Source of the DNA: an uncultured Bacillota bacterium
GTDB taxonomy: Bacteria > Bacillota_I > Bacilli_A > RF39 > UBA660
Direction of reading: 5' to 3'
Assembly (NCBI GenBank): GCA_947303895.1
Contig: CAMYZQ010000001.1
Coordinates: 5,779-69,778, forward strand
DNA: 64,000 nucleotides
The number at the start of each line of letters is the position of its first letter. Position 1 is the stretch's first letter. The translations under genes were made by a program, and so were the position numbers. Positions 27,714 through 56,672 of this stretch are shown one piece after another. The notes beneath the pieces were generated by a model. The model saw only the letters and a list, made by a program, of their open reading frames with translations. It was not told the origin of the DNA and searched no databases.

Positions 27714-30700
27714 ATGGCACAAGACATTGTTAATGAAAATCAAAAAATTTCTTATACCAATTTAGATTTCTCTTCAATTTATACTGAAGTAATAGATTTA
27801 ATTAAGCAACTTACCTATAGATGGGATCCTTCCATATCAGATGAATCTGACCCAGGTGTTGTTTTAGTAAAACTATCTTCATTAATTGCAGATAAATGCA
27901 ACTATAATATTGATAAGAATATTTTAGAAACATTTCCACTTTCTGTTACTCAGAATGGTAATGCCAGACAACTGTATGATCAACTCGGTTACTATATGAA
28001 TTGGTATGAAAGTGCTTCTGTTCCAGTGTTATTGAGCTGGGTAGGAGAAACTAATGATAGTTCTGTATCTTATACTATACCTAAATTTACAGCAATAACA
28101 GATTCAGAATCAAGCCACATTTATTCTTTAATTGGTGCTGAAGGTACTGATGATGTAATAGTATCTGATACAATATTACCTGCTGATGGTAATGCAGTAA
28201 CAGTTATAGCAATGGAGGGTACTCCAGTTCAATATCAATTTGAAAATGAGACTGTTATTACTACTCAAATGGTAGATCCAATATCAAGAAGATTATATTT
28301 TCCACATTCTTATGTATCTCAAAATGGAGTATTTATAAAGAACACTAATCAGGAAAATTACGCTTCTTGGAAAAGAGTTAATAACTTATATGAAAATTCA
28401 TATAATGAATTAAGATATGTTTTTGGCTATGATAGTAATACTGATACTTGTTTTTTAGAATTTCCAGATAATTATTCAGAATTATTTGGAAGCGGCATTG
28501 AGATTACATATTTAGTAGTACCTCAAGAAACAACTAATATTCCAGCACAAGCATTAAATAGTTTCTTAGCACCTATTGCTGTAGGTGGAGATGCTGGCAT
28601 AGTTTTAGATTCAAGTAATGTTAAAATTGTTAATTATGTAGCTGCTTCAGGTCATAAAGATATTGAAAGTATAAATGATGCTTATATTAATTATAAGAGA
28701 ACAGTTGGTACTTTCAAGACATTAATTACATTAAGAGATTATTTAAATTATATTAGAAGCCAGGAGCTTGATATTTGTTCAAACGCCTTTGTATGTGATA
28801 GAACTAATGATATTCAGTCTACATACAAAATTATGAGCAGTAATCATGATTTGGACACAATAATTGTTAAAGTAGAACAATTATTAGATAAAACAACTTT
28901 AGAATCTACATTTGACTACAAGTTTGTAAAAACATCAGATATTAATATAAATCCTTCAAAGACATATTATACAATATCTAATAATAATACATTATCTGAA
29001 GTTACTACACCTGTGCTCAGTGATTTAAGTACTTACTATGAATTATCATCAGTAGAACCAAAATATGTAGATGCATTAAGTCCATTTTCTCTTAAGTTCT
29101 ATTTACTTAGAAAAGCTATAGCTTTAAATAGCAAAACAGCATATAATCAAACATTCTCTATGATGAAAACTTATCCAGAGTTTGATTCATTATTAGAGGG
29201 TACATCACATCTTGAGCATACATATGAAGATATTCTGCCTTTAGGTGAGAATACATATATTAAATCAAATGATGATATGTGGTATGATAACAAATCATAT
29301 TGGTTATATGATTCTGAAGAAGATATTTATGAGTTAATTTCTGATACTTCTGTATTTGATGGAACACCAGCTAGCCTATCAAATGTATATAATATTGATG
29401 TAGAGGCACTTCTCCCTCATACAGTAATGTTTAAAGGTGTATATCCAGTTACATTAAATATATCTACATATAATGTATTAGATGAAGATACACAAGCAGA
29501 TATTTCGAGTAATATTATTTCAAGCTTATATTCTAATGTGAATAGTTCACAAGTGGATTTTGGTTTACCAATTTCTATAGACTATTTAGTTGAAATTGCA
29601 AAAAATAGTGATGATAGAATTAAAAATGTTACTATAGATCCGATAGAATATTCTTTATTTGCTACATATTATGACAAGAATGAAGATATTTATGTAGATG
29701 TAGAACTTAACAGTGATACGGATTCATTAACTCCAGTATCGCAAAGAAGTATTTCAGATATTGTATCTGCATTAATGAAAAAAGACATCATATGTAAATC
29801 AATATTAGCTGGTACTACACAGTTATTAGTTCCAGATGATACCTTCATATATCATTTGAGCCAAAAATATTTAGATTACATTGATGGTATAAGTAATATT
29901 ACAGGTGAAGCTATAATAGATGTACAGAATGATTCTGTTACTTCATATTCATTAGATAATGAAGATTCATTTATAAGAAAAGCATATACATTAAAGGATA
30001 ATGAAGTAGTATCCATTTATAGACCAAAATTTAATGCTACAAAAACATTTCCAAATAATGTACATTTTGAATATGTATTATATAATGATATTACTGCTGA
30101 TTCTTCTTATAAATTAAATAGTAATGAATATTTCATATTATATAATCCAATAAAAGATGATGATGCTACAACTATTATTGGTTATACAGTTTATGCTTGT
30201 AGTGCTGGTGCAATAATTCACTCTACATTTGATATACCAAAACAAACATCTTTATCAGCATTATCTGGGTTTGCTAGAGCTAGAGTAGTAACTTATTTCT
30301 CAGTTAATCCTACAAAGAATTATTATGAATTATCCACTTATAATGAGAATTATAAGACGGAAATAAGAAATAGTTCTGCAATCATAAATAATGCAATATC
30401 TGGTACAAATGAGATTCAAATACAAGAAGTTTCAACTATAACACTTGATAGAGAAGATAAATATAAATTCTTCTGGATATTAAATGAACCAACATATTCA
30501 AACAATTCAAATTTAAAGTCATATACTTTATTTGATAATTTTGATAGTGTAAATGATAATAATTCTTCAGAAGTTATAAATACTTATACTTTAAGAAACG
30601 GTGAAGCATTGTTCTACACTAATGAGTCTGCTACAGATTTTGCTATGCTCGGCCCTGGTACAACACTTATCAGAAACTGTGGTGTTGAGTCTTCAATATA

Positions 30701-33700
30701 TACTGAGATTGAAAATTCAATCTATTATGTAGCTGTTGATGATATAGCACATATACTTATAGATGGTGAGTTCGAGTTCTTAACCGATGATAATAGTGAG
30801 ATAAGGCCTTTTGCTAATGGTTTATATGAAGTATCAAGTGCAGAATTACAAACATTAGAAAGTACTGATAATCCATTAGCGAAAAATTTATATGAACAAG
30901 TTGTTCATGATGATACAACCATATCATATATACCTACATTTAATACAGAACCAGAAGAGGGTGTAGATTATTACAAATTAACATTTATAAGAACTTTAGA
31001 CACATCATTAGTTTCTGGTAAATATTACTATGTACTAGTAATGAGAAAAGAGGCTGGATGGTATATAAAGAGTAGTGTAACTGATGATAATGGTATAGAT
31101 AGAGAAATCTATGTACCTGATGAGATTGAAACAGGTTGTTTTAAAGAAGTAAATCTATATGCAACTGCAGAATTACATAATCCTAAAGAGTTAGGTTTAT
31201 ATGAAATACTCACATCTAATAATAATAAATTTATAGATCAGTATGCTTTAAATAATAATGTTGCAGCTACAAAGCAAAATAGATATACTACTACAGAAGA
31301 TACATCAGTTATAAATAGAAATATTTTATCTGATACAAAATATTCTGGCATAAACTTAACTGATATAAGTACATATACTACAATAGATATGTCAGAAATG
31401 ATAACTTCAAGTCCTGAAACACTTGGGTTATTAACACCGGTGTATAAAAAATATTATACTACTGCTTCTCATACGGAGGAAGTGCCAGTAAGTTACTTAT
31501 CAAATCCTAATGCAGAAGGTTTATGGGCATATGAATATAATCCAATAACAGGAACTTATGAATATATGCTAACATCTGATACTACACCTAAAGTTGAATC
31601 TGTAAATAAATCACTTAGTGTAGAATTATTAAAAGAAAAAGATACACTGTTTACAAACAACTTAAATAATTCTGGCTATTATTATAAACCAAGCTCAATA
31701 AATTCTACATATTATTATAATAACAATTTAGGTTCAAAATTACCTACAACAGTATATAGTAATATATCAGGCTATAGCCCTTCATTCTTAGATGCTGGTA
31801 CAGTGTTAACAGAATATGAGGGTGCGTATAATAGATCACCATTATCATATTTATTCTATTGGTTTAGTAATACATCAGCACAGACAGAATCATCATTAGA
31901 TGAGTCTACTAAGAGATTAACACAAATTGCTGCAAATTGGGCAACAGCTATTTCCTACCAAAAACCATATATGGAAGTGCCTTTATGGGATTCTAATTCT
32001 GTATATAAATATGATGATGTTGTAGCTTACTCTCCGAGCAGTGAACAGGCAGCGCTATCATACAAATGCATTGTATCTCAGGCGTCAAGTACATGGAATT
32101 ATGATGAATGGGTTAGAGTTGATACCTCTTGGGCAACATTTAAGTTTAAGACACATACTGACCCACACACTATACCAAGTGATGATAATAATTCTTATCT
32201 CATAAGTAGTATAAGAGATGCTTCAGCTATACCAGAATGGAGTAGTGAAGAGACTTATGAATATGGTGATGTTGTACTATATACAATAGACACAGACACA
32301 AACGCTTATATGTGTATAGTTGATCAGGCATCAAGCACTTGGGATTCTGAAGAATGGAAAGAAATAGATACTTCTACTGATAATAAATATATCAAGGTAG
32401 CTGGTAACACTATAATTGATAAATCTATTATAGTAGGTAATATATATCCTATATTAGATGAGGGGCCAGATTCTACTGGAACTGGTGCATGGTTCTTTAT
32501 ACCAGCTGCTTATTTAACAAGTTATGCAGAAGCAGATTTAGTAGACCCAATAAATTACTATGTATTAGATGTTGATACTTCAGTAACTCCAAATGTACCT
32601 ATATTTACATATTTGGATAATGATCTAAAACTTTCAAGATTATTCCCTAATTCAAAAAATGATGTAAGTAATTATGGAACAGTACATATATTCTTTATAC
32701 CTAAGTTATATGAGTTTAATGATTTTGTAAGGTACACTTATAAAAATTATTATGAACCAAAAGTTTTGTATAACAGAAACTGCGGAGAGATAAAAGCTTG
32801 GACTTGTACAGCTTTAGATAATGATTATATTTATAAAGACCCAATTAAGAATATTGGAGATTTATGGACATCACTGCAGACAAATACTTCATTAACATTA
32901 ATAGAAAATGAAATTCAATCATTTTCTTCTGGAGATATGCTTATATTTGAAGCAGACGAAACTTCTGAAGCATATGTATCATGGCCAACATTTAGTAATA
33001 CTGAAACAATATTAGATTTAGATTCTTACAGAGTTTCATATCAAAGAGTTGGAGAAGATATTAAAGATATTGAAACTGTGGCTGTTGATGATTATAAATG
33101 GAGAGGCTATTCTTCATTAATGCTAAATACATCAAGTACAAGTGGCCAAAAATTAGAGTATAACCATACATTAAAACTATATGATAGTGATGTAGCTGAA
33201 GATCCTATAGCAACATTGGAGGGTAGTTCACACAATAACATAACTTTCCAATTAAAATACCCTGTTGAAAATAAAGTAGGTACATTTATAGATGTATCAA
33301 CAGTAGATATGCTAGGAGAGGATATTCTTAATAAACTATATGCATTTACTCCATTTGCAAATGGTTCATATTATGCATATGATACCAGTAATTACAAAAC
33401 ATATTTATATTTTAATCAAGATGAGAACGAGGGCAGTAATCCAACTACATATTCACCATCAACAATAGATTTACCTGTAGGTTTACCATCAGGAAATTAT
33501 TTACTTGGTATGAATATGAAAGATGACATAAACCTTACTGTAAATCTTATAAATATGCTTGAAGGTATTTCCTCAGGTGGTTCTGGTATTGGTTGTAATC
33601 TTGATGCGTCTGCAGTAGTTTCTAATATTGCATATGGTAATATGAAATACACATTTGATCCAAATTATAGTAATTATTTACATTCATATGTAGATACAAG

Positions 33701-34388
33701 CAGAACAGTGTTTACTGGAGATAAATATGATTATATTTACTTAAATGTAAGTAGTGAATATAATAAAATTAAATTACCTTCATTAGTATCATATTTATTT
33801 GGTAAGTCTCCATATGCACTTGGTTGGTATATCAAACTTGATAATGATTATATTAAATGTGATTCAAGTTATACTTCAGTAGGTTCAAGCTTACTTGAAG
33901 CAATACCATTTAATGAAGATACTAGATCATTATCACCAGTCGAAGAAGGTTGGTATGAATATATACTTGATAATGGTTATTGGTTCTATGAGTTATCTAC
34001 AGATGCTGTTATGGCAGACGCTAATACAAAAACATATTATAAAGAACCAGATTTATATGTGAGTATTTCAGATGTAAATTCATATTTAAGATTTACAATA
34101 GATGATAATAAAGCACCTAGAACCTATACAATTTTAGATGTATTCAAGTATAATCAAAATCCAGCATTTGGTAGTGAATTTGATACTGTGCTAGAAAAGA
34201 TTAAAGCTTTAGATACTGATGAGCAATTTAATTATATGTTTAAGCCATCAGCTAATGATTTAATTGAAAATCCATTAGATCCTAAATCATTCTGGAATTC
34301 AAATCATGTATATAACAGTTTCATTATACCACAATTAAATTTCGATGAACTTAATTGTAGATATATCACAACTAAAATGAATAGGTAA
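27714..34388 (+). CDS. giant (2224 aa) baseplate J (gp6/gpJ)-like protein fused to a long distal region carrying CBM5/12-like carbohydrate-binding repeats
   Basis: The N-terminus YTNLDFSSIYTEVIDLIKQLTYRWDPSISDESDPGVVLVKLSSLIADKCNYNIDKNILETFPLSVTQNGNARQLYDQLGY matches the Baseplate_J family; internal repeats YKYDDVVAYSPSS..YKCIVSQASSTWNYDEWVRV and YEYGDVVLYTIDTDTNAYMCIVDQASSTWDSEEWKEI fit W....Y..GD.V.Y.G..Y.C......W....W. Confidence 0.7.
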   Translation: MAQDIVNENQKISYTNLDFSSIYTEVIDLIKQLTYRWDPSISDESDPGVVLVKLSSLIADKCNYNIDKNILETFPLSVTQNGNARQLYDQLGYYMNWYESASVPVLLSWVGETNDSSVSYTIPKFTAITDSESSHIYSLIGAEGTDDVIVSDTILPADGNAVTVIAMEGTPVQYQFENETVITTQMVDPISRRLYFPHSYVSQNGVFIKNTNQENYASWKRVNNLYENSYNELRYVFGYDSNTDTCFLEFPDNYSELFGSGIEITYLVVPQETTNIPAQALNSFLAPIAVGGDAGIVLDSSNVKIVNYVAASGHKDIESINDAYINYKRTVGTFKTLITLRDYLNYIRSQELDICSNAFVCDRTNDIQSTYKIMSSNHDLDTIIVKVEQLLDKTTLESTFDYKFVKTSDININPSKTYYTISNNNTLSEVTTPVLSDLSTYYELSSVEPKYVDALSPFSLKFYLLRKAIALNSKTAYNQTFSMMKTYPEFDSLLEGTSHLEHTYEDILPLGENTYIKSNDDMWYDNKSYWLYDSEEDIYELISDTSVFDGTPASLSNVYNIDVEALLPHTVMFKGVYPVTLNISTYNVLDEDTQADISSNIISSLYSNVNSSQVDFGLPISIDYLVEIAKNSDDRIKNVTIDPIEYSLFATYYDKNEDIYVDVELNSDTDSLTPVSQRSISDIVSALMKKDIICKSILAGTTQLLVPDDTFIYHLSQKYLDYIDGISNITGEAIIDVQNDSVTSYSLDNEDSFIRKAYTLKDNEVVSIYRPKFNATKTFPNNVHFEYVLYNDITADSSYKLNSNEYFILYNPIKDDDATTIIGYTVYACSAGAIIHSTFDIPKQTSLSALSGFARARVVTYFSVNPTKNYYELSTYNENYKTEIRNSSAIINNAISGTNEIQIQEVSTITLDREDKYKFFWILNEPTYSNNSNLKSYTLFDNFDSVNDNNSSEVINTYTLRNGEALFYTNESATDFAMLGPGTTLIRNCGVESSIYTEIENSIYYVAVDDIAHILIDGEFEFLTDDNSEIRPFANGLYEVSSAELQTLESTDNPLAKNLYEQVVHDDTTISYIPTFNTEPEEGVDYYKLTFIRTLDTSLVSGKYYYVLVMRKEAGWYIKSSVTDDNGIDREIYVPDEIETGCFKEVNLYATAELHNPKELGLYEILTSNNNKFIDQYALNNNVAATKQNRYTTTEDTSVINRNILSDTKYSGINLTDISTYTTIDMSEMITSSPETLGLLTPVYKKYYTTASHTEEVPVSYLSNPNAEGLWAYEYNPITGTYEYMLTSDTTPKVESVNKSLSVELLKEKDTLFTNNLNNSGYYYKPSSINSTYYYNNNLGSKLPTTVYSNISGYSPSFLDAGTVLTEYEGAYNRSPLSYLFYWFSNTSAQTESSLDESTKRLTQIAANWATAISYQKPYMEVPLWDSNSVYKYDDVVAYSPSSEQAALSYKCIVSQASSTWNYDEWVRVDTSWATFKFKTHTDPHTIPSDDNNSYLISSIRDASAIPEWSSEETYEYGDVVLYTIDTDTNAYMCIVDQASSTWDSEEWKEIDTSTDNKYIKVAGNTIIDKSIIVGNIYPILDEGPDSTGTGAWFFIPAAYLTSYAEADLVDPINYYVLDVDTSVTPNVPIFTYLDNDLKLSRLFPNSKNDVSNYGTVHIFFIPKLYEFNDFVRYTYKNYYEPKVLYNRNCGEIKAWTCTALDNDYIYKDPIKNIGDLWTSLQTNTSLTLIENEIQSFSSGDMLIFEADETSEAYVSWPTFSNTETILDLDSYRVSYQRVGEDIKDIETVAVDDYKWRGYSSLMLNTSSTSGQKLEYNHTLKLYDSDVAEDPIATLEGSSHNNITFQLKYPVENKVGTFIDVSTVDMLGEDILNKLYAFTPFANGSYYAYDTSNYKTYLYFNQDENEGSNPTTYSPSTIDLPVGLPSGNYLLGMNMKDDINLTVNLINMLEGISSGGSGIGCNLDASAVVSNIAYGNMKYTFDPNYSNYLHSYVDTSRTVFTGDKYDYIYLNVSSEYNKIKLPSLVSYLFGKSPYALGWYIKLDNDYIKCDSSYTSVGSSLLEAIPFNEDTRSLSPVEEGWYEYILDNGYWFYELSTDAVMADANTKTYYKEPDLYVSISDVNSYLRFTIDDNKAPRTYTILDVFKYNQNPAFGSEFDTVLEKIKALDTDEQFNYMFKPSANDLIENPLDPKSFWNSNHVYNSFIIPQLNFDELNCRYITTKMNR

Positions 34389-38681: not shown

Positions 38682-39734
38682 ATGGAACCGAATTTTGATT
38701 TTGATAAATGTGCTGAATTAACTAAAAATGGAAAATGGTTTTCACAATTATTGTATGATAGGGCTTATGATATAATAAAAGATGATTGTTTCCCTATAGT
38801 TATACCATCATATAATAGGCCAAAAAATAAGCTTTTAAGAATGTTTAAAAATAATAATATTGATAATTATAATTTTCAAGCTTATTATTTGGTTAGGGAA
38901 TCTCAGAAAGAAGAGTATGAAGCAGAAGTAGTTAATATAAAAAATGTACATATTATTACTGCACCTGATGATTTAATAAATGGTGCAGGTAAAGCTCGAA
39001 TAGAAATTATTAAAAGATTTAACGGAAATATATTTTTATTTGATGATGATATTCAGCAAGTTTGTTTTACTACACCTACATATACTCCAAAAGGTGGTTG
39101 CAGATTTGGTACTAAATATAATCCTACAGATTTATTTAAAATATTATCTATGTGGCAGCTAACTTATATGGTTGTAAAAGAAAAATATCCAGAAATAGTT
39201 GGTAGTAATCTACCTTGCACAGCTCATACTTGGCCAGTAACACCAAATCATCTACCACAATATTCAGTAGAGTTTAATAGGGGCCCATTTGCAGTATTAA
39301 CTATATGCGATGTAGATAAACTTAAAGAAAATAATTTAACATATAGAGATAATTCTTTTGGTCATGAGGATTTGGATTTACAATTCAGGTGCTTAATGGC
39401 AGGGTTAAAATTTATTAGAATTAATTTTATAGGTTATGTGGCAGATCCCCCTAATCCAGAGTTTAATGGGGATAAGTCTGCTTCTGCAATGGAACGATAT
39501 GAAAAGCAATATAATCAAATGCTACCATATTTCAAAGATGTGCCTTGGATAAAAACAAGAGAGCAAAAGGGATTAAAAATGCTAGCTGTTGATTACAGAA
39601 AATATTCTGAATGTATGGGTGCTGACCCTAAAATAAATCCTGTAAAATTATTGCAAGAAAAATATCCTATTTTCAATGATATAGAAACAGTTGAATTGTA
39701 TGGAAAAACTAAACATAAATTAGATCTTTTTTAA
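38682..39734 (+). CDS. GT-A-fold (family-2-like) glycosyltransferase-like protein, paralog of 50935..51795
   Basis: The N-terminal FPIVIPSYNRPKN (h-h-h-h-P-(S/T)-YNR motif) and FLFDDD (DxD-like); the same arrangement as in ORF 50935 (FAIFILSHGRPDE ... AEFEDDYL). Confidence 0.4.
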   Translation: MEPNFDFDKCAELTKNGKWFSQLLYDRAYDIIKDDCFPIVIPSYNRPKNKLLRMFKNNNIDNYNFQAYYLVRESQKEEYEAEVVNIKNVHIITAPDDLINGAGKARIEIIKRFNGNIFLFDDDIQQVCFTTPTYTPKGGCRFGTKYNPTDLFKILSMWQLTYMVVKEKYPEIVGSNLPCTAHTWPVTPNHLPQYSVEFNRGPFAVLTICDVDKLKENNLTYRDNSFGHEDLDLQFRCLMAGLKFIRINFIGYVADPPNPEFNGDKSASAMERYEKQYNQMLPYFKDVPWIKTREQKGLKMLAVDYRKYSECMGADPKINPVKLLQEKYPIFNDIETVELYGKTKHKLDLF

Positions 39735-41390: not shown

Positions 41391-42083
41391 ATGCTTGTAG
41401 AACTTTTAAGTCAGTCTAATTATCAATCGTTTAATATTAAATTAGCTCAACTGCTCGGATTGGAATCAGCAATATATCTTAGTGCTTTAATAGATATAAA
41501 TGAAAAAGCATTTAGAAAAAATAAGATTATAGATCATGGCTTTTTTATGGTTGATAGAGATTATATAAAAGCAAGAACTACATTAACTAAATCAAAACAA
41601 GAAAAAATAGAATGTGAATTAAACAAACTTGGTATACTAGAATTAAGTAATGATCATTTAAAAATTAATCTTGAAATTTTAACATCATTGGTGTTAGAAG
41701 AAAATGAAGAGATAAGAAGAGATTTGTCAAATTTCAGAAAAGCTGCTAATTCAAAGAATAAGGGTGATTATATTCTTGAAAATGTAAAAAAGAATATTGA
41801 TACTAAATTGCCAATGGAATTACAACAAGCTTATGCTAATTGGCTTGATTCTGTATATTCAAAGATTAATTTTGTTAATAAACAAACATTGTTTAATGCA
41901 CAGAAAGAGGTTGATGCTGCTTCAAATCATAATTTAGATGTAGCATTAGATATCATAAATATAGCTGCAGCTAGTGGCTGGAAAGATATGAAGTGGGCAG
42001 TAAAAGTTTACAAAGAAAGACACCCAAATTATAATGTAATAGATATGAAAGCTGTAGATGTAGATTGGAGTACAAGTTACTAA
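41391..42083 (+). CDS. DnaD-like replication initiation / replisome organiser protein
   Basis: The N-terminal IKLAQLLGLESAIYLSALIDINEK...GFFMVDRDYIKARTTLTKSKQEKIECELNKLGILEL resembles DnaD or phage replisome-organiser winged-helix N-domains; it is followed by DnaC- and DnaB-like genes. Confidence 0.45.
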   Translation: MLVELLSQSNYQSFNIKLAQLLGLESAIYLSALIDINEKAFRKNKIIDHGFFMVDRDYIKARTTLTKSKQEKIECELNKLGILELSNDHLKINLEILTSLVLEENEEIRRDLSNFRKAANSKNKGDYILENVKKNIDTKLPMELQQAYANWLDSVYSKINFVNKQTLFNAQKEVDAASNHNLDVALDIINIAAASGWKDMKWAVKVYKERHPNYNVIDMKAVDVDWSTSY

Positions 42084-46061: not shown

Positions 46062-46095
46062 AAGCCAGGGGCTAATAACTCCTGGCTTATTTTTA
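46062..46095 (+). terminator. rho-independent terminator after the SSB gene
   Basis: 8-bp GC-rich stem aagccagg (46062-46069) / cctggctt (46081-46088), an 11-nt loop, then atttttaag. Confidence 0.6.
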
Positions 46096-46106
46096 AGATT
46101 TACAAA

Positions 46107-46295
46107 ATGAGTATGAAATTATATAATGAAGCAAAAGAATTGTTCGGTGATATGGTTGATTTAACTGAAGAAGAATCCAAAGCATATGCTGAATATATCA
46201 ATAGTATTTCAGAGCCAGTTAATGGTAGAACATTTTGGGAGATATTAGATGAATTTGTGGGGAGAGGAGTTTGTTCTAGAGACAACTCAAAATAA
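46107..46295 (+). CDS. hypothetical small protein (62 aa) overlapping the polymerase start
   Basis: ORF; overlaps 46249..48684 by 47 nt in a different frame. Confidence 0.3.
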   Translation: MSMKLYNEAKELFGDMVDLTEEESKAYAEYINSISEPVNGRTFWEILDEFVGRGVCSRDNSK

Positions 46296-48684
46296 AGTAA
46301 ATAAACTTCTTGATAAAGTAAATAATCCTAAAAAATCACATCATAAAAAGAAAGAAAGTTTTTCTGTTGATGAAAGATTAGTTACAATAAAAGAATCAGT
46401 AAATAAAATTTTAGGTAAATATGCAGATTCAACTATTGTAATAAAGTCTAAAGAAGAATATGATGATTATATTAATAAGTGTATTGATATAGGTATTGTA
46501 GCTCTTGATACTGAAACTAATAATAGCTTAGATCCTTTAACTTGTATGTTAATGGGATTATGTTTATATGCACCTGGATTGCCAGCAGCGTATGTACCTG
46601 TTCATCATATAAATAGAGAAACAGGTGAGAGATTAAGTTGGCAGTTAGATGAGAAACAAATAAAAGAAGGCATAGAAAAACTTAAAAATATAAAAATATT
46701 AACTCATAATGGTAAATTTGATTATGAAGTAATTAAATGTACTTGTGATTGTGATTTCCCAATATATTGGGATTCCCAGATAGCTGCAAAGGTGCTTGAT
46801 GAAAATGAATTATCTGCAAGGTTAAAAGATCAATATGTAATGAAAATTGATCCTAATGAAGAAAAATATTCTATTGAGCATTTATTTGAAGGGTTAGATT
46901 ATGCAATAGTTGCACCCGAACTATTCGCTTTATATGCAGCTACAGATTCATTTAAAACATATAAATTATATGAATATCAATATAAACAGTTAAATAAACC
47001 TGAAAATAGTAGATTACTTGATTTATTATTTAATGTAGAGTTTCCTGTAATACCTGTAGTAGCTGAAATGGAATTAACAGGTGTTTGTATTGATTTAGAA
47101 TATTCTGACAGATTGAGAAAAAAATATGATGATAAATTAGCTAATTTACAATCAAGAGTAGATAAAGAATTATCTAAATATGATGATGTAATTGCAAAAT
47201 GGAGATTAACAGAAGAAGCTAATCATCACCCAATAAAATCTACAGGAAATGGGTTAGGTAAATCTAAATCTGAACAATTAGAAAATCCTGTAAATTTGGC
47301 TTCACCAACACAACTTGCAATATTACTGTATGATGTGTTAAAAGTTCCAGTAGTTGATAAGAAAAAACCAAGAGGTACAGGTGAAGATATATTACTAAAA
47401 ATAGATTTACCTCTGTGTAAATTAATTCTGGAATATAGAGGGTTAATGAAACTTGTTAATACCTATATTGAAAAATTACCAGAATGTATATCTGAGAGAG
47501 ATGGTAGATTACACGCAAGCTTCAATCAATATGGAGCAGCTACAGGTAGGTTTAGTTCAAGTGACCCAAATCTTCAAAACATACCTTCGCACGAAAATTC
47601 TATACGAATGCTATTTACAGCAAGTCCTGGTTATGTTATGTGTGGTGGAGACTTTTCACAGCAAGAGCCTCGTTTACTAGCACATTATTCAGATGATGAA
47701 AATATGATAAATGCATATAAAGATGGAAAAGATTTATATGCTACAATCGCATCAAGAGTTTATCATAATAAATATGAAGATAATCTAGAATTTAGACCTG
47801 ATGGTAGTATTAATCCAGATGGAAAGAAAAGAAGATCTGCTTGCAAGGTACTTTTGTTAGGAATTATGTACGGTATGTCAGTACCCGCTATTGCAGAGTC
47901 TTTGAACTGTTCTACAAAAGAGGCAAGTGATATAAGATCTAGTTTCTTTAATCAATTTCCAAAAGTTAATAAATGGATAAATGAAACACAGGTTTTCGCA
48001 AAAGAAAATGGCTATGTAGAAGATGCTTGGGGTAGAAGAAGAAGATTACCTGATATACAAAGGCCAAGATATGAAGTTAAATCTAAAAATAAATTTTCAA
48101 CATTTAATCCACTAATAGGTAGTTCTGGTGTAAATTATACTATTAACAATGTGTTAATTGAAAAATATTTATCAGAATTAGATAAATGTAAAAATGCTAA
48201 CGATTTTAATATTATAAAATCAAAAGCAGAAAAAGATAATTTAACAATATATAACAATACAGGTTTTGTATCACAAGCTGAAAGGCAGTGCGTAAATGCA
48301 AGAATTCAGGGTGGTGCTGCTTCTATGTCTAAGCGTGCTATGATAGATGTTTATAATAATAAAGAACTTAAGGATTTAGGTTTTAGATTATTAATAGCTG
48401 TACACGATGAATTGATAGGTGAATGTCCAGAAGAAAATAAAGAAAGATGTAAAGAATTATTGTCTAATATTATGATTAATTCTGCAAAACCTGAAGTAAA
48501 TGTACCTATGAAGTGTGATGCTGATTATTTTAAATCATGGTATGCAGATGTATATAGCTCAGAATTAGAAAAAGAATATAATAATTATTTATCAAAATAT
48601 GATAAAGAAAAAGCTTATGAGCTATTGAAAGATAATCATTCAGAAGTAACTGATGAGTTTATATCAAATATTATTTACAAATAA
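46249..48684 (+). CDS. family A DNA polymerase (Pol I-like) with a 3'-5' exonuclease domain
   Basis: Exo I IVALDTETN; motif A GDFSQQEPRLLAHYS; motif B RRSACKVLLLGIMYGMS; motif C VHDELIGE. Confidence 0.9.
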   Translation: MNLWGEEFVLETTQNKVNKLLDKVNNPKKSHHKKKESFSVDERLVTIKESVNKILGKYADSTIVIKSKEEYDDYINKCIDIGIVALDTETNNSLDPLTCMLMGLCLYAPGLPAAYVPVHHINRETGERLSWQLDEKQIKEGIEKLKNIKILTHNGKFDYEVIKCTCDCDFPIYWDSQIAAKVLDENELSARLKDQYVMKIDPNEEKYSIEHLFEGLDYAIVAPELFALYAATDSFKTYKLYEYQYKQLNKPENSRLLDLLFNVEFPVIPVVAEMELTGVCIDLEYSDRLRKKYDDKLANLQSRVDKELSKYDDVIAKWRLTEEANHHPIKSTGNGLGKSKSEQLENPVNLASPTQLAILLYDVLKVPVVDKKKPRGTGEDILLKIDLPLCKLILEYRGLMKLVNTYIEKLPECISERDGRLHASFNQYGAATGRFSSSDPNLQNIPSHENSIRMLFTASPGYVMCGGDFSQQEPRLLAHYSDDENMINAYKDGKDLYATIASRVYHNKYEDNLEFRPDGSINPDGKKRRSACKVLLLGIMYGMSVPAIAESLNCSTKEASDIRSSFFNQFPKVNKWINETQVFAKENGYVEDAWGRRRRLPDIQRPRYEVKSKNKFSTFNPLIGSSGVNYTINNVLIEKYLSELDKCKNANDFNIIKSKAEKDNLTIYNNTGFVSQAERQCVNARIQGGAASMSKRAMIDVYNNKELKDLGFRLLIAVHDELIGECPEENKERCKELLSNIMINSAKPEVNVPMKCDADYFKSWYADVYSSELEKEYNNYLSKYDKEKAYELLKDNHSEVTDEFISNIIYK

Positions 48685-48702
48685 ACCAAAATATAGTATA
48701 AT
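48674..48702 (+). promoter_or_regulatory. sigma-70-like promoter TTTACA-N17-TATAAT, possibly giving a leaderless mRNA
   Basis: -35 tttaca 48674-48679, a 17-nt spacer, -10 tataat 48697-48702; the ATG of the next gene is at 48710, with no SD. Confidence 0.35.
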
Positions 48703-48709
48703 ATAATAA

Positions 48710-49366
48710 ATGGAACATAATATAGTAGAAAAATTAAATTTAATTCCATATATTGGTGCTTCAGATTCTTGTCTTGCAGCTATGGAATTTGCAGAGCATA
48801 ATTTAGCCCATGTTTCTCGTGTAGCTAAAATGGCTTGCAAGATATTATCAGAATTAGGTTATAGTGAGCATACGATAGAGTTAACTGAAATTGCTGGGTA
48901 TATGCACGATATTGGTAATGTTGTGAACAGGCATGATCATGCTCATTCAAGCGCAATATTAGCATATAATATTCTCTTAAAGAATGGTTATGAATTAGAA
49001 GATATTTTAAAAATAATATCTGCTATTGGTAATCATGATGTAACTACAGGGTTTCCAGTTAGCCCTATTGCAGCTGCACTTATAATTGCAGATAAATCTG
49101 ATGTAAGAAGAAGCAGAGTTAGGAAACAAGATCTAAATACTTTTGATATTTATGATAAAGTACATTATTCTGTAGATTCTTCTATATTAACAGTTGATAA
49201 AGATAGTAGAGTAATAACACTTAAGTTAAAACTTAATACAAACTATAGTTCTGTACTCGATTACTATGATACATTCTATAGCAGAATGCAACTGTGTAAG
49301 AAAGCTGCAGAATATTTAGATATGAAATTTTGTTTACAAATTAATGATGTAAAACTAATGGATTAA
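48710..49366 (+). CDS. HD-domain (HDIG-type) metal-dependent phosphohydrolase
   Basis: H..RVAKMA (first His), YMHDIGN (HD), HDHAHSS, IIADKSD (Asp), with HD-domain spacing. Confidence 0.7.
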   Translation: MEHNIVEKLNLIPYIGASDSCLAAMEFAEHNLAHVSRVAKMACKILSELGYSEHTIELTEIAGYMHDIGNVVNRHDHAHSSAILAYNILLKNGYELEDILKIISAIGNHDVTTGFPVSPIAAALIIADKSDVRRSRVRKQDLNTFDIYDKVHYSVDSSILTVDKDSRVITLKLKLNTNYSSVLDYYDTFYSRMQLCKKAAEYLDMKFCLQINDVKLMD

Positions 49367-49377
49367 TGAGGTAATAT

Positions 49378-50496
49378 ATGTCAATAACACTAAAAACAGA
49401 AGAGTTAAATAATATTTGTTCTAAAATTCTTTTTGCTGTAGATTCTAATGGGTTGTCAGAGATAACAGAAACATTGGAGCTTGTACTGAATAATAATAAT
49501 TTGTATTTACAGGTTACCAATAGAGAATATTTTATTAAGATTAAACTGTCAACAAATATAGCTGAAGATTTTCACGCAACAGTAAATGCTGAGCTTTTCC
49601 TTAAACTAATTTCAAAGATAACTACTGAATTAGTTACTATGTATATATCAGATAATTGCTTGTTAATTACAGGTAATGGTAAATATAAGCTTCCACTTGT
49701 ATATGATGGTACTGAATTACTGAAACTTCCAGAAATAACTATAGATAATGTTACTAATTCATTTAGTATAAGTGGCGATGTTTTAGATAGTATTTTTACA
49801 TATAACAGTAAGCAGCTTATAGGTAAGGTTATTAATAATCCTGTACAGAGTCTATATTATGTAGATAATGAAGGTGCTATTACATTTACTTCTGGTGCGT
49901 GTGTAAATAAGTTTGAGCTTGATGAAGATGTTAAGCTGTTGCTTAATTCTAAATTGGTTAAACTGTTTAAGCTATTTAAATCTGATACTGTAGAGTTTTC
50001 TATTGGTCAGGATAAACTGTCAGAAGAACTTATTCAGACAAAAGCGAGGTTTAAAACTTCTGATATTGAATTAACAGCAGTATTGCCTACAAATGAAGCT
50101 TCTATTAAAAAGGTGCCAGTTAAGGTAATTAGAGATAGAGCATATAAAGATTATAAATATTCTGTAACTATTAATAGAGTAGAAATGCTTCAGGCAATTA
50201 ATAGACTGTTTATTTTCTCAGATAAAAGTTCAGCTATAGATAGAACTTATGGTGTATTTACTTTTGAGAAAAATAAAGTTATAATTAGTGATATGAATAG
50301 TGTAAATAAAGAAGAAATTGTTTATGCTAATGAGTCTATTATAAGCGATGAATATAAAGCAGTGCTTGATTTTACAGATATAAAATCTATTCTTGATTCT
50401 TCAACTGGAGAATTTATTACATTTAATTTTGGAGATAATCAGGCTATTGTTTGTGTTAAAGATAATATTTACAATATTGTTCCTGAGATTGTATAA
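49378..50496 (+). CDS. possible DNA polymerase sliding clamp (beta-clamp-like); weak assignment
   Basis: 372 aa (beta-clamp size); located in a replisome operon that encodes a DnaX-type clamp loader; no diagnostic motif. Confidence 0.3.
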   Translation: MSITLKTEELNNICSKILFAVDSNGLSEITETLELVLNNNNLYLQVTNREYFIKIKLSTNIAEDFHATVNAELFLKLISKITTELVTMYISDNCLLITGNGKYKLPLVYDGTELLKLPEITIDNVTNSFSISGDVLDSIFTYNSKQLIGKVINNPVQSLYYVDNEGAITFTSGACVNKFELDEDVKLLLNSKLVKLFKLFKSDTVEFSIGQDKLSEELIQTKARFKTSDIELTAVLPTNEASIKKVPVKVIRDRAYKDYKYSVTINRVEMLQAINRLFIFSDKSSAIDRTYGVFTFEKNKVIISDMNSVNKEEIVYANESIISDEYKAVLDFTDIKSILDSSTGEFITFNFGDNQAIVCVKDNIYNIVPEIV

Positions 50497-50510
50497 TAAT
50501 GGAGTAAATT

Positions 50511-50948
50511 ATGGATAAATTTGGGTTATTTGATATTGAAACAACAGAAGAAGATGCAAGATATACAGGCAAAGTTTCTATACCACAGTATCTACCTAAA
50601 GCTGAATGTCCAAGTGTACACGAATTAATTTCAACACGCAAGTATGATGAACTTGTAAACGAGATTAAAACAGCTTCGATTAGTGATGATCAGAAAGACT
50701 TTTTAATTAAAGCTGCTACTCGTCATATGGTATTTAATTATGGCAAGATAGCTGATTATTATGCTCATCAGGGTAAAGAAATGCAAGCGTTAATGGAAAA
50801 ATCAGCATTAGTTATCATAGATTTGAATGATGCTATTGCTAATGGTTATGTAACTTTGCAGAATAGAATTATGGATATAGCTAGAAAGCAGACTTCTGTG
50901 CAAGAGGCCATAGCTAAAGATTCGGAGACTAAAAATGGTAAGGGATAA
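50511..50948 (+). CDS. hypothetical protein (145 aa)
   Basis: ORF; no motif. Confidence 0.4.
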   Translation: MDKFGLFDIETTEEDARYTGKVSIPQYLPKAECPSVHELISTRKYDELVNEIKTASISDDQKDFLIKAATRHMVFNYGKIADYYAHQGKEMQALMEKSALVIIDLNDAIANGYVTLQNRIMDIARKQTSVQEAIAKDSETKNGKG

Positions 50949-51795
50949 TTTTGCAATATTCATTTTATCTCATGGTAGACCTGATGAGGTTTTTACTGTA
51001 AAAACTCTACAAAAAGTTGGGTATACTGGTAAATACTATTTCATTATTGATAATGAAGATGATACTGTAGACGGGTATAGAAAACTTTTTGGCGAAGATA
51101 GAGTTATTGTATTTGATAAGGCAGCTGTTGCTAAAAAGTTTGATGTTTATGATAATTTTGATGGCAGAAATGTAGTTGTATATGCTAGAAATGTATGCTT
51201 TGATATAGCAAGAGAACTTAAGCTTGACTATTTTGCAGAATTCGAAGACGATTATCTTGATTTTAGATATAGAGTACCTGAAGGTCAAGTACTAAGATCT
51301 ATAAATATAGAAGACTTTGATGCTGTTTGTGAAGCTATGCTTGATTTTCTTGATTCTACAGGTGTGAGAACTATTGCATTTGCACAAAATGGTGAAATGG
51401 CTGGTGGTGTAAATAGTAATGTTTGGAAAACACAGGTTAAGCGTAAAGCTATGAATACATTTTATTTTAAGGTTGGTAAGCCTGAAGATGATTTTTATTT
51501 CTTAGGTAGGTTTAACGACGATGTAAATGCATATACAGTTCTTGGTCAAAGGGGAGAAATATTTTTACAAACACCTATAGTTAATTTAGGTCAGGTAATT
51601 ACTCAATCAAGAAAAGGTGGTAATACAGAGGCTTATAAAGCTTATGGTACATATGTAAAATCATTTTATTCTATATTAGCTTGTCCTCATAGTGTGAAAA
51701 TTGCTATGGTTGGTGAGAGCCATCCACGATTACATCACACAATTAATTGGAAAACTTGTGTACCAAAAATTATTAGTGATAGGTTTAGAAATTGA
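50935..51795 (+). CDS. GT-A-fold glycosyltransferase-like protein, paralog of 38682..39734
   Basis: FAIFILSHGRPDEV ... YYFIIDNEDD ... AEFEDDYLDF, parallel to IVIPSYNRPKN ... YYLVRESQ ... FLFDDDIQ in ORF 38682. Confidence 0.4.
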   Translation: MVRDNFAIFILSHGRPDEVFTVKTLQKVGYTGKYYFIIDNEDDTVDGYRKLFGEDRVIVFDKAAVAKKFDVYDNFDGRNVVVYARNVCFDIARELKLDYFAEFEDDYLDFRYRVPEGQVLRSINIEDFDAVCEAMLDFLDSTGVRTIAFAQNGEMAGGVNSNVWKTQVKRKAMNTFYFKVGKPEDDFYFLGRFNDDVNAYTVLGQRGEIFLQTPIVNLGQVITQSRKGGNTEAYKAYGTYVKSFYSILACPHSVKIAMVGESHPRLHHTINWKTCVPKIISDRFRN

Positions 51796-52235
51796 GAGGT
51801 TATAATATGAAAATTGGTATATATCCTATGGTAGCAGATATTCTTCACCCAGGGCATTTAATAGCTATAGAAGAAGCTAAAAAATATTGTGATTATCTTA
51901 TTGTAGCATTACATTGTTGCCCAAATTATAAAGACCCTGTACAGACAATATATGAAAGATATATGCAGTTAAGGGCAGTAAAATGGGTAGATGAAGTAAT
52001 TCCATACTATGATAAATATGATGCTGCTACAATGCTAAAGAGTTTTAACTATGATGTGTACTTCTTGGGAGATGATCATAAGGGCAAAGATTGGGAAAAT
52101 AAAGACCTGCTGTCCACCCTTGGTAAAGAAGTTATTTATCTTCCAAGACAACATGATTTTAGTAGCACTAACCTTAAGATAAGAATTGTTGATAAGGAGA
52201 TGAATATAAATGAAGAAGTACATACTAACGCATAA
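51792..52235 (+). CDS. cytidylyltransferase-family nucleotidyltransferase (TagD / glycerol-3-phosphate cytidylyltransferase-like)
   Basis: GIYPMVADILHPGH ((H/T)xGH motif), WVDEVIP, LGDDH, YLPRQHDFSSTNLK, collinear with TagD TYGTFDLLHWGH / YVDEVIP / GDDW / YLPRTEGISTT. Confidence 0.75.
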   Translation: MRGYNMKIGIYPMVADILHPGHLIAIEEAKKYCDYLIVALHCCPNYKDPVQTIYERYMQLRAVKWVDEVIPYYDKYDAATMLKSFNYDVYFLGDDHKGKDWENKDLLSTLGKEVIYLPRQHDFSSTNLKIRIVDKEMNINEEVHTNA

Positions 52236-52407
52236 AGGTGCAATTAATACAAATATAACTGATAACCCTCATACAGAATGTTTTCATATTATAGATAATA
52301 TTCTTTATAAAGAAGATATTCTTGGTAATTTGTATGATTGTGGTGAAGTAATAGGTGAATATGATACTTTAGGAGAAATACTAGCTAATTCAAATGAAAA
52401 CAATTAA
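52210..52407 (+). CDS. hypothetical small protein (65 aa)
   Basis: ORF. Confidence 0.3.
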
Positions 52408-52822
52408 GATAAAATATTTTACAGACATAGAACCTATTGAGAAAATATCAAAAGGTGATTGGATAGATTTGAGAGCTGCAAAAGATGTTGAACTTGAAGC
52501 AGGTGAACATACTCTCATACCTCTTGGTGTTGGAATGATTTTACCAGAAGGTTATGAAGCACATATTGTACCAAGAAGTAGTACATTTAAAAAATATAGT
52601 GTTATTCAAGCTAACCATATGGGAATAATAGACAATTCTTATTCTGGAGAAGAAGATGAATGGAAATTTTCTGCTTATGCTGTAGAACATACATTTATTA
52701 AAAAGAATGATAGAATTTGTCAATTTAGAATTATGAAAAAACAACCTGAAATTTCTTTTGAAGAAGTAGAACATTTGAATGAAAAAAGCAGGGGTGGTTT
52801 TGGTAGTACAGGAACTAATTAA
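52394..52822 (+). CDS. dut: dUTP diphosphatase (trimeric dUTPase)
   Basis: All five dUTPase motifs are present in order: [39 protein letters not shown]. Confidence 0.85.
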
Positions 52823-56024: not shown

Positions 56025-56672
56025 ATGTCGAAACTTGATCTATCTGCTGTAGAATTAAATTCTTTGGAAAATAAGATATGTTCTTTGCTAAGAAAAATAG
56101 ATAGACCTGGTGCTGATATTGAAGGCTTAATAAAAAAGCTTAAAGATGCAGATTATTTTACAGCACCAGCAAGTACAAAATTTCATAATTGTTTTATAGG
56201 TGGTTTAGCAGACCATTCACTTAATGTATATTATAATCTTAAAAGGTTAGTTGAAAATAAGCATCTTGAAGATGTAATACCTGAAGAGAGTATAATTATT
56301 TGTGGACTCTTACACGATATGTCAAAAATTAATTATTATGAAAAAGGTGTAAGAAATAAAAAGGTGTATTCAGAATCAGGTAGTAAATGGGACGAACTTG
56401 GAAGGTATGATTGGGTAAGTGAAGAAACTTGGAATGTTATACCAGATAATAAAAGGTTTATTTATGGTAATCATGAAGAGACTGCTGAATTTATGGTGAG
56501 ACAATTTATACCACTTAAAGTAGCTGAGTCTGCTGCTATTCTTAACCATCATGCTGGTAAAGGTTATGATTCTACTGGTATTAATATAAGTAGTATATTC
56601 CATAGATACCCATTAGCTAATTTACTTCACGTAGCAGATATGATTGCTACTTTTACTGATGAAACAGATTAA
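56025..56672 (+). CDS. HD-domain hydrolase with HD-GYP-like motifs (candidate nucleotide or cyclic-nucleotide phosphodiesterase)
   Basis: H..N (first His), LLHDMSKI (HDxxK), NHHAGKGYDS (resembles the HD-GYP HHE.xDGxGYP), D at VADM. Confidence 0.55.
   Translation: MSKLDLSAVELNSLENKICSLLRKIDRPGADIEGLIKKLKDADYFTAPASTKFHNCFIGGLADHSLNVYYNLKRLVENKHLEDVIPEESIIICGLLHDMSKINYYEKGVRNKKVYSESGSKWDELGRYDWVSEETWNVIPDNKRFIYGNHEETAEFMVRQFIPLKVAESAAILNHHAGKGYDSTGINISSIFHRYPLANLLHVADMIATFTDETD

Follow-up and report, generated by a model that had tools for sequence, protein, structure and literature searches.

An accessory glycosyltransferase cassette in the replisome array of a large gut or rumen phage, a candidate system for sugar decoration of DNA

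The 64-kb window analysed here, by which we mean the whole stretch of contig CAMYZQ010000001.1 from position 5,779 to 69,778, belongs to a large gut or rumen phage, a myovirus, and carries among its replication genes a cassette that most likely serves to decorate the phage's own DNA with sugars. Judged by gene content in relatives, the cassette consists of an HD-domain phosphohydrolase (HD1), a ParB-type protein (ParBC), a glycosyltransferase (TAGT1), a nucleotidyltransferase and a small protein (orf65); a second glycosyltransferase gene upstream, TAGT2, is likewise lineage-specific. The initial annotation had joined the nucleotidyltransferase, two GT-A-like proteins, two HD hydrolases and a dUTPase into a candidate module for DNA hypermodification and nucleotide-pool control. 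The positions and plus-strand orientation of all six open reading frames (ORFs) proved correct, and Pfam searches bore out their families. The proposal as a whole holds in part, in that both glycosyltransferases fall into Pfam family PF20691, that the nucleotidyltransferase is tied to them and that the genes occupy a hot spot for DNA modification, but its membership and the role of HD1 had to be redrawn and two components, ParBC and orf65, added.

Two TAGT glycosyltransferases and a ParB-type partner

Family PF20691 (TAGT, TET-associated glycosyltransferase) is said to have been defined by Iyer et al. in 2013. TAGT1 (50935..51795, + strand, 286 amino acids) scores 99.3 bits against it (E 3.8e-28) and the divergent TAGT2 (38682..39734, + strand, 350 amino acids) 36.2 bits, both above the gathering threshold of 27.5 bits, and PF20691 matches are recorded for homologs of each in precomputed annotation. 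The best PHROG match of TAGT1 is phrog_842 ("beta-glucosyl-HMC-alpha-glucosyltransferase"; E 8.7e-57), which TAGT2 matches at E 1.8e-10. The motifs first quoted for the two, IFILSHGRP in TAGT1 and IVIPSYNRP in TAGT2, are present in the translations. Alignments of 20-24 homologs show R15, D42, D105-D106 and several further residues of TAGT1 to be invariant, with E104 or D104 before the two aspartates and an N-D/E-D-V-N motif at 194-198; in the four-member TAGT2 family the invariant residues are R46, D121-D123 and H228-E229-D230. Both proteins carry the R…DDD…ED signature, described as R…DDD…ED(Y/F) for phage GT-A enzymes with experimentally proven glycosylation of 5-hydroxymethylcytosine (5hmC) in DNA (10.1101/2023.12.21.572611). 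The GT-A fold expected of TAGT1 is found in its AlphaFold model (pLDDT 74), for which Foldseek returns viral TAGT-domain proteins as the closest structures (TM 0.81-0.82) and, in the PDB, the GT-A enzymes SpsA, ColGalT1 and GalS1 at E 3e-5 to 5e-4.

To call TAGT1 and TAGT2 paralogs, as had been done, is to overstate their kinship. Both are PF20691 proteins, but BLASTP finds no similarity between them (E 3.8) and a profile-profile comparison gives a weak match (E 0.027) with the R and DDD motifs aligned, so that by sequence they appear to be only remote relatives of each other. Homologs of TAGT1 form about 3,000 protein clusters, none of which bears a functional name. TAGT2 is rare, with four clusters among 5.8 billion proteins; it occurs only in two lineages that also have the TAGT1 cassette and is missing behind the SNF2 gene in locus L084 and in relatives further removed. 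In the window, the TAGT2 start codon comes immediately after the stop codon of the SNF2 helicase gene, which is a core gene kept also in relatives without TAGT2. One TAGT2 homolog (P0243, 499 amino acids) has an N-terminal cytidine/dCMP deaminase domain (PF00383, with an HAE…PCxxC motif) fused to the glycosyltransferase, an arrangement that links TAGT2 to pyrimidine or nucleic-acid chemistry.

The gene for ParBC (50511..50948, + strand, 145 amino acids), overlooked in the initial annotation, overlaps the start of TAGT1 by 14 nucleotides. The protein matches only the C-terminal part of the PHROG "ParB-like partition protein" (phrog_620 positions 150-215, E 1.9e-7) and is 35-53% identical to the TAGT partners of phages phi jlb1, c5 and HHTV-2 and of a Vibrio phage. 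On alignment, the shared domain spans about 110 amino acids, and 24 of its columns do not vary among the bacterial and haloarchaeal phages compared. Temperate phages have it joined to ParB_N (ParB/Srx), whereas in large lytic phages it stands alone; the protein of the window has the C-terminal domain only and no ParB_N.

The association of the two proteins extends well beyond this phage. TAGT1 homologs with 37-44% identity always lie behind an overlapping ParB-like gene in Lactobacillus phages c5 and phi jlb1, the haloarchaeal virus HHTV-2, Nocardia phage NTR1 and siphophages of E. coli and Salmonella, and in Vibrio phages of 191-195 kb the TAGT1 homolog is preceded by a 139-amino-acid protein. 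We collected 80 viral loci from IMG/VR with a TAGT1 profile and inspected a neighbourhood of ±10 kb. A ParBC homolog adjoins TAGT in 77 of the 80, usually overlapping it, and in one locus the two are a single ParB-TAGT fusion protein of 522 amino acids; more than half of the loci (55/80) have ParB-TAGT without a nucleotidyltransferase. The hosts of phages with the ParB-TAGT module include E. coli, Salmonella, Vibrio, Nocardia and Haloarcula, and Vibrio phage Va1 is among the carriers. Temperate phages have the pair directly upstream of the terminase and structural genes, and in Lactobacillus phage c5 (complete genome, 31.8 kb) ParB and TAGT are the first two genes after cos. In E. coli the pair (L216/L217; ON470595.1 35487-37203), 44% identical to TAGT1, lies between trkG and the terminase genes of Rac-like prophages, where the ParB gene is named ynaK by the NCBI pipeline; it is present in 1,580 of 5,426 complete genomes (~29%) and of full length in 889, and strains L73 and CP53 are examples with an intact pair. 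The E. coli gene ydaY is not the truncated TAGT, as it maps elsewhere in the prophage. In ten of the 80 loci (L169, at 10864-11823, L173, L177, L182, L183, L191, L192, L195, L196 and L199) a radical-SAM protein of about 319 amino acids adjoins the pair, in most of them immediately downstream of TAGT. It is weakly similar to HydE and HydG and could make the acceptor or modify the sugar.

The donor branch and the genomic setting of the cassette

The nucleotidyltransferase (NTase; 51807..52235, + strand, 142 amino acids) is of the TagD/ECT/HldC type (CTP_transf_like, 52.7 bits), ECT being ethanolamine-phosphate cytidylyltransferase. Its start is most likely the ATG at 51807, behind a GAGAGG ribosome-binding site, and not the TTG at 51792. 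The HPGH (HxGH), VDEVIP, GDD and YLPR motifs reported for it are present in the translation, its PDB matches include 1coz (TagD, E 4e-13) and 3elb (ECT, E 3e-13), and its best PHROG match, phrog_7878 (E 1.7e-25), bears the name of a heptose adenylyltransferase. It had been taken for a TagD-like enzyme that would activate glycerol-3-phosphate or a related polyol or sugar phosphate. The HxGH motif of that proposal stands. Since the protein scores far below the cut-offs both of the TagD equivalog TIGR01518 (61.7 bits, cut-off 165.4) and of HldC/RfaE domain II TIGR02199 (54.2 bits, cut-off 181.5), and since it reads RQHDFSST where TagD has RTEGISTT and so lacks the C-terminal RTxGISTT motif, no substrate can be assigned to it. 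Comparison of its motifs with those of TagD, ECT, CCT and HldC did not single out one either.

Two further genes of the cassette would act with this enzyme. HD1 (48710..49366, + strand, 218 amino acids; Pfam HD, 39 bits) has a single PDB match below E 0.01, the uncharacterised HD hydrolase 2pq7 (E 0.007), with dGTPase-like chains at E 0.2-0.3; in the PDB search neither HD1 nor the second HD protein of the window, HD2, showed detectable similarity to characterised deoxynucleoside triphosphate (dNTP) triphosphohydrolases of the dGTPase, SAMHD1 or DatZ type. The gene orf65 (52210..52407, + strand, 65 amino acids), also overlooked at first, runs from within the 3' end of the nucleotidyltransferase gene into the 5' end of the dUTPase gene. 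Its product has no match in Pfam or PHROGs, and its homologs adjoin the nucleotidyltransferase in L131, L137 and L144, in differing gene orders.

The gene orders of relatives are informative. In L131, whose polymerase is 60% identical to that of the window, the same five genes are rearranged as PolA-orf217-HD1-NTase-orf66-ParBC-TAGT-clamp, with HD1 directly upstream of the nucleotidyltransferase, and in L135 the order is PolA-ParBC-TAGT-His_Phos_1-NTase-clamp, with a His_Phos_1 gene in place of HD1. The nucleotidyltransferase is present in 25 of the 80 loci, in 19 of them as the C-terminal half of a His_Phos_1-nucleotidyltransferase fusion between ParB and TAGT, and in L159 the fusion is with a HAD-like domain that bears a DxDG motif (PDB 2obb, E 2e-15). 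The closest relatives of the His_Phos_1 half of the fusion are phosphoserine phosphatase and enzymes of the phosphoglycerate-mutase type. Given that three unrelated phosphatase folds, HD, His_Phos_1 and HAD-like, occur in the same place beside the nucleotidyltransferase, a phosphatase step is probably coupled to nucleotidyl transfer, and because these phosphatases replace one another we assign HD1 to donor synthesis rather than to control of the dNTP pool. HD1 is thus most likely a donor-pathway phosphatase and not, as first described, a dNTP-pool sanitiser. Furthermore, the conserved, rearranged and fused gene arrangements argue strongly that the nucleotidyltransferase is functionally tied to the glycosyltransferases. 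Six Vibrio phages with ParBC-TAGT also carry the same type of nucleotidyltransferase, at a distant locus; the HD protein that adjoins it in Vibrio phage SRILMA was considered as a counterpart of HD1 and is not homologous to it. Such Vibrio phages, with both ParBC-TAGT and the nucleotidyltransferase, have in addition a gene for a PurZ-like '2-aminooxy adenylosuccinate synthetase' (L133, SRILMA, PP083314.1 30102-48515), which suggests that they have a diaminopurine genome besides possible glycosylation.

Relatives with replisome proteins 40-80% identical to those of the window lack HD1, ParBC, TAGT1, the nucleotidyltransferase and orf65 and keep SSB, the polymerase, the clamp, the dUTPase, the resolvase, RecA, HD2, the clamp loader, Mre11/Rad50 and the unnamed ORFs between them. 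By this comparison the cassette is accessory and horizontally exchangeable. The sliding clamp gene (49378-50496), which lies between HD1 and ParBC, is a core gene of the phage group and stands outside the cassette. The same is true of two genes that had been counted into the module, the dUTPase (52394..52822, + strand; PF00692, 62 bits) and HD2 (56025..56672, + strand; Pfam HD, 23.5 bits against a cut-off of 22). Relatives without TAGT have the dUTPase gene in the same position and L131 carries the cassette but lacks the gene, so that the two are not inherited together. HD2, always beside the clamp loader, is closest to the 3'-5' exoribonuclease YhaM (E 0.003) and to the PRK13480 model. As both genes are conserved regardless of TAGT, in relatives with and without glycosyltransferases, we have removed them from the proposed module. 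Orf230 (41391-42083) was rejected as a module gene: its match to Stealth_CR2 is weak and below threshold, and the gene is core in relatives.

The slot around polymerase and clamp, as far as the gene content of relatives can tell, is a hot spot for DNA modification. In two IMG/VR contigs of 145 kb (L071 and L072), genes for QueD, QueE, FolE, QueC, a HAD-like protein and a DpdA-like transglycosylase lie between polymerase and clamp (L072:3540-7152); this full 7-deazaguanine cluster sits where the phage of the window has HD1, with its glycosyltransferase cassette just downstream of the clamp. L198 has ParBC-TAGT followed by a helicase and a DNA methyltransferase, L070 has ThyX at the slot, and L075 has after the clamp (L075:7270-8520) a 416-amino-acid protein with a GNAT acetyltransferase domain and a weak, below-threshold P-loop match (AAA_18), which is another candidate nucleic-acid-modifying enzyme. 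The number of TAGT copies at the slot ranges from 1 to 5 among relatives. The highest number is that of L137 (IMG/VR, 115 kb), where five TAGT genes in a row are accompanied by ParBC, the nucleotidyltransferase and an orf65 homolog (L137:5431-10855), an array that points to multi-sugar or combinatorial decoration.

Two promoter-like elements on the + strand stand before cassette genes, TTTACA-N17-TATAAT at 48674..48702, 8 nucleotides upstream of HD1, and TTTACA-N18-TATAAT at 50468..50497, 13 nucleotides upstream of ParBC. There are six exact TTTACA-N16-18-TATAAT matches in the window (42007, 42095, 45168, 46099, 48674 and 50468), with 0.55 expected by chance, and all six are on the + strand between 42.0 and 50.5 kb, most of them in gaps between genes of the replication array. 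They probably represent a class of phage promoters that serves replication genes and, since the elements before HD1 and ParBC are of this common type, the cassette is likely co-expressed with those genes. A strong terminator-like hairpin follows the SSB gene at 46062-46088.

The window has about 29% G+C and nearly all of its genes are on the + strand. Contractile-tail virion genes (sheath, T4-type baseplate, tail lysozyme, CHAP/NlpC-P60 and LysM domains) fill positions 1-36 kb, and the replisome array fills 36-64 kb, in the order SNF2 helicase, DnaC-like loader, DnaB, primase, SSB, family-A polymerase and beta clamp, continuing with Holliday-junction resolvase, RecA, clamp-loader gamma, delta' and delta, and Mre11/Rad50-like proteins. 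Megablast with 12 kb of the region as query found no DNA-level match among GenBank phages; the polymerase shares 43% identity with its counterpart in Clostridium phage phiCTP1 and 38-42% with those of Streptococcus phages MS1 and Dp-1, and human, bovine and other gut metagenome assemblies contain proteins identical to those of the window. Related contigs are as long as 145-160 kb, so that the window covers only a part of the phage genome, and we estimate the share beyond it at 30-80 kb. The tail and baseplate region ends with a 2,224-amino-acid ORF (27714-34388) that has zero Pfam matches. The polymerase gene, intact in the window (46249-48684), is two ORFs in the near-identical contigs L009, L011, L012, L014 and L130, and in L130 a NUMOD3 homing-endonuclease ORF separates the halves, a sign that the population may be polymorphic for a mobile intron or intein-like insertion.

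Possible targets of the glycosyltransferases

We read the cassette as an accessory one for post-replicative sugar decoration of the phage's own DNA, a reading to which we give a probability of about 0.6 because tested members of the family glycosylate DNA, the partner is of ParB type, the genes sit at a hot spot in the replisome operon and they have a dedicated donor branch. HD1, the nucleotidyltransferase and orf65 would turn a phosphorylated host metabolite, be it a sugar bisphosphate, a sugar phosphate or a polyol phosphate, into a nucleoside-diphosphate (NDP)-activated donor. The logic would be that of ADP-heptose synthesis, in which a phosphatase step by GmhB precedes nucleotidyl transfer by HldC. 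TAGT1, perhaps in a complex with ParBC as its adaptor, would then transfer to DNA either the donor made by the cassette or a host UDP-sugar. TAGT2, whose translation is coupled to that of the SNF2 translocase, may add a second sugar or serve a second sequence or linkage context, and the promoter type of the replication genes would drive the cassette genes.

Several points weigh against this reading, and the acceptor is its weak point. As stated in the initial annotation, no hydroxymethylase or thymidylate-synthase homolog is visible in the window: Pfam scans gave no match to Thymidylat_synt, Thy1, Tet_JBP or DNA-methylase families among all window ORFs of at least 80 amino acids, nor among the ORFs that a relative with the cassette has within the next 10 kb downstream, nor among 37 lineage-specific ORFs from eight loci of TAGT-bearing relatives. 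In all, no hydroxymethylase, TET/JBP enzyme or C5-methyltransferase was found in the window, in the 5-16 kb downstream or in the 80 TAGT loci with their ±10 kb. A search of 217 loci by motif, tblastn and phmmer, made with ThyA and T4 gp42 sequences as queries and weaker than a profile search, found no ThyA-like or T4 gp42-like gene, and ThyX occurs only in a relative without TAGT (L070). No hydroxymethylase-type enzyme is annotated in the complete 31.8-kb genome of phage c5, and no hydroxymethylase, dioxygenase or methyltransferase in an intact E. coli Rac-like prophage with the pair. Among the lineage-specific genes of the window none is left that could serve as a base hydroxylase, and the T-even-type combination of dCMP hydroxymethylase, dCTPase and DNA glucosyltransferase in one genome does not occur in the data examined. 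With no acceptor-making enzyme found, the usual acceptor is unaccounted for; the data at hand do not span the whole genome, and the remainder may encode the enzyme, or the acceptor may be one that needs no hydroxymethylation. In addition, enzymes of the GT-A and TagD types are also typically found in the synthesis of cell-envelope glycans, the structure model of TAGT2 (pLDDT 53) is too poor for use, and in the literature searched we found neither an experimental test of a member of the ParB-linked TAGT clade nor a paper on the module.

A bolder form of the proposal is that ParB(C)-TAGT glycosylates DNA without any 5-hydroxymethylpyrimidine precursor, placing a sugar, sometimes from a phage-made NDP donor, on a canonical base or another DNA acceptor, and does so widely, in this myovirus, in Lactobacillus, Vibrio and haloarchaeal viruses and in E. 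coli Rac-like prophages; we offer this tentatively and consider it doubtful. A rival reading is a classical pre-replicative route, in which a hydroxymethylase encoded outside the window would make 5hm-dUMP or 5hm-dCMP, HD1, HD2 and the dUTPase would purge canonical dNTPs, and the TAGTs would glycosylate the hydroxymethyl base as in T-even phages. Characterised PF20691 members do act on 5hmC or glucosyl-5hmC, the genome does extend past the window (related contigs of 145-160 kb), with NrdD and NT5C genes downstream, and a TAGT2 homolog is fused to a dCMP-deaminase-type domain. However, the purging enzymes do not fit: HD2 and the dUTPase are core genes kept in relatives without TAGT, HD2 resembles nuclease-type HD proteins such as YhaM, and HD1 interchanges with phosphatases fused to the nucleotidyltransferase. 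Given also that no ThyA-like or gp42-like gene turned up in the 217 loci, that ThyX is confined to the relative without TAGT and that small complete genomes have the ParB-TAGT pair without such an enzyme, we regard this route as unlikely.

Targets other than DNA agree less well with the coupling to ParB, with the range of hosts and with the position in the genome. Modification of the host teichoic acid, the alternative named in the initial annotation, would mean that the nucleotidyltransferase makes CDP-glycerol or a similar precursor and that teichoic acid, or some other surface glycan of the infected cell, is glycosylated by the GT-A enzymes, as by prophage TarP, which would block superinfection or alter receptors. 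That TagD is among the closest solved relatives of the nucleotidyltransferase, that no base-hydroxymethylating enzyme was found and that phage GT-A DNA glycosyltransferases structurally resemble TarP (10.1101/2023.12.21.572611) would suit it, but the module is carried by phages that infect E. coli, Salmonella, Vibrio, Nocardia and Haloarcula, hosts with fundamentally different envelopes, is coupled to ParB_N or ParBC in 77 of the 80 loci and once fused to it, lies here in a replisome array behind replication-type promoters, and has a nucleotidyltransferase far below the TagD cut-off and without the RTxGISTT motif; we think an envelope target improbable. Quite improbable, in our view, is a soluble product, a nucleotide-linked compound made or modified with no polymer target, for example in order to deplete or mask a host metabolite or immune signal. 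A phosphatase, a nucleotidyltransferase and a glycosyltransferase do make up a typical small-molecule pathway, comparable to glucosyl-phosphoglycerate synthase with its His_Phos_1 phosphatase; the His_Phos_1 domain of the fusions is closest to phosphoserine phosphatase and phosphoglycerate-mutase types, and the missing DNA acceptor enzyme would cease to be a problem. Against this, the 55 loci with ParB-TAGT have neither nucleotidyltransferase nor phosphatase, and the partnership with ParB_N and a position beside terminase or in a replisome array would be hard to explain. Glycosylation of virion proteins, as in mycobacteriophages and chloroviruses, would accord with the place of the temperate-phage pair directly upstream of terminase and structural genes. 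Yet enzymes that act on DNA, HNH endonucleases and ParB-methyltransferases for example, commonly occupy that place in the late operon, the genes of this phage and of about 14 related lineages lie at the polymerase/clamp slot, far from structural genes, and the ParB coupling also speaks against a virion target, which we hold to be very improbable indeed.

Decorating DNA with sugars is one of the principal ways in which phages evade restriction enzymes and CRISPR, and it is a source of enzymes for epigenetic sequencing. To our knowledge, all characterised DNA glycosyltransferases need a hydroxylated pyrimidine that is provided by a hydroxymethylase, by a hydroxylating synthase, as in the Mosigvirus 5-hydroxycytosine pathway, or by a TET enzyme. 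Our analysis defines a large branch of the TAGT family, of about 3,000 protein clusters, with a fixed ParB-type partner, often its own donor branch and no visible acceptor-making enzyme. If this branch modifies DNA, either the acceptor chemistry would be new or the acceptor would be made in a way not yet recognised. Since E. coli Rac-like prophages and cultured Lactobacillus and Vibrio phages contain close relatives of the pair, the question is tractable in the laboratory, and this tractability, together with the wide distribution, makes the acceptor question worth pursuing.

Comparison with known systems

A close parallel is with the phage GT-A DNA glycosyltransferases associated with 5mYOX/TET or ThyS, which share with the present system PF20691, the R…DDD…ED signature, the GT-A fold, neighbours that handle sugar nucleotides and, at times, a tandem arrangement. 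In contrast to them, no C5-methyltransferase, 5mYOX or ThyS was found here, the ParBC partner appears obligatory, and the donor branch is formed by a TagD/HldC-like nucleotidyltransferase and an interchangeable phosphatase. About 65% of glycosyltransferase-bearing contigs have no 5mYOX or ThyS gene nearby, and ParB, clamp and polymerase genes have already been noted as neighbours of phage DNA glycosyltransferases (10.1101/2023.12.21.572611). In the T-hypermodified phages Carin-5 and YerA41, sugar-nucleotide and glycosyltransferase genes adjoin the polymerase gene (PMC12686479).

The T6-type beta-glucosyl-HMC alpha-glucosyltransferase carries the TAGT Pfam domain (PMC13390438), and phrog_842, the best match of TAGT1, is named for this enzyme; T6 is not among the tblastn matches of TAGT1 at E <1e-5. 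As the T2/T6 enzyme adds a second sugar to already glucosylated DNA, it offers a model for a system with two glycosyltransferases. Unlike in the T-even phages, their dCMP hydroxymethylase, dCTPase and first glycosyltransferase are not seen here.

For a cell-wall function the model would be TagD and TarP. The nucleotidyltransferase is closest in sequence to TagD and ECT types, and TarP is a prophage GT-A enzyme resembling the phage DNA glycosyltransferases. However, the score falls short of the TagD equivalog threshold, the C-terminal motif differs and the module is found also in phages whose hosts have no teichoic acid.

In kinetoplastids, JBP2 couples an SNF2 ATPase to base modification. There is a likeness to this in the translational coupling of TAGT2 to an SNF2 helicase gene. 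In the base J system, which comprises the JBP1/JBP2 hydroxylases and the glucosyltransferase JGT, the latter is a cellular structural relative of the phage GT-A DNA glycosyltransferases (10.1101/2023.12.21.572611). Unlike base J, the present system has no JBP-type dioxygenase, and its SNF2 gene is a core gene also found in relatives without TAGT2.

The donor branch can be compared with the pathway of the metavirome 'contig 53', in which heptosyl-5hmC is produced by a phage cytidylyltransferase, a phosphatase/kinase and a DNA glycosyltransferase; there too, a PF01467-type nucleotidyltransferase and a phosphatase encoded by the phage supply the donor of a DNA glycosyltransferase (10.1101/2023.12.21.572611). 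The two differ in that the contig 53 pathway has a bifunctional HAD/APH enzyme with a kinase, a GT-B glycosyltransferase and 5hmC made by methyltransferase and TET, whereas there is no kinase here.

Finally, in the DpdA/DpdB 7-deazaguanine system and in ParB-fused phage DNA methyltransferases, a protein of the ParB/Srx family partners a DNA-modifying enzyme. Those systems carry out base exchange or methylation, whereas glycosyl transfer is predicted here, and the ParBC protein of the window has no ParB_N domain. Nevertheless, the present system too has a ParB/Srx-family partner, and in sister phages a DpdA-like cluster occupies the neighbouring slot.

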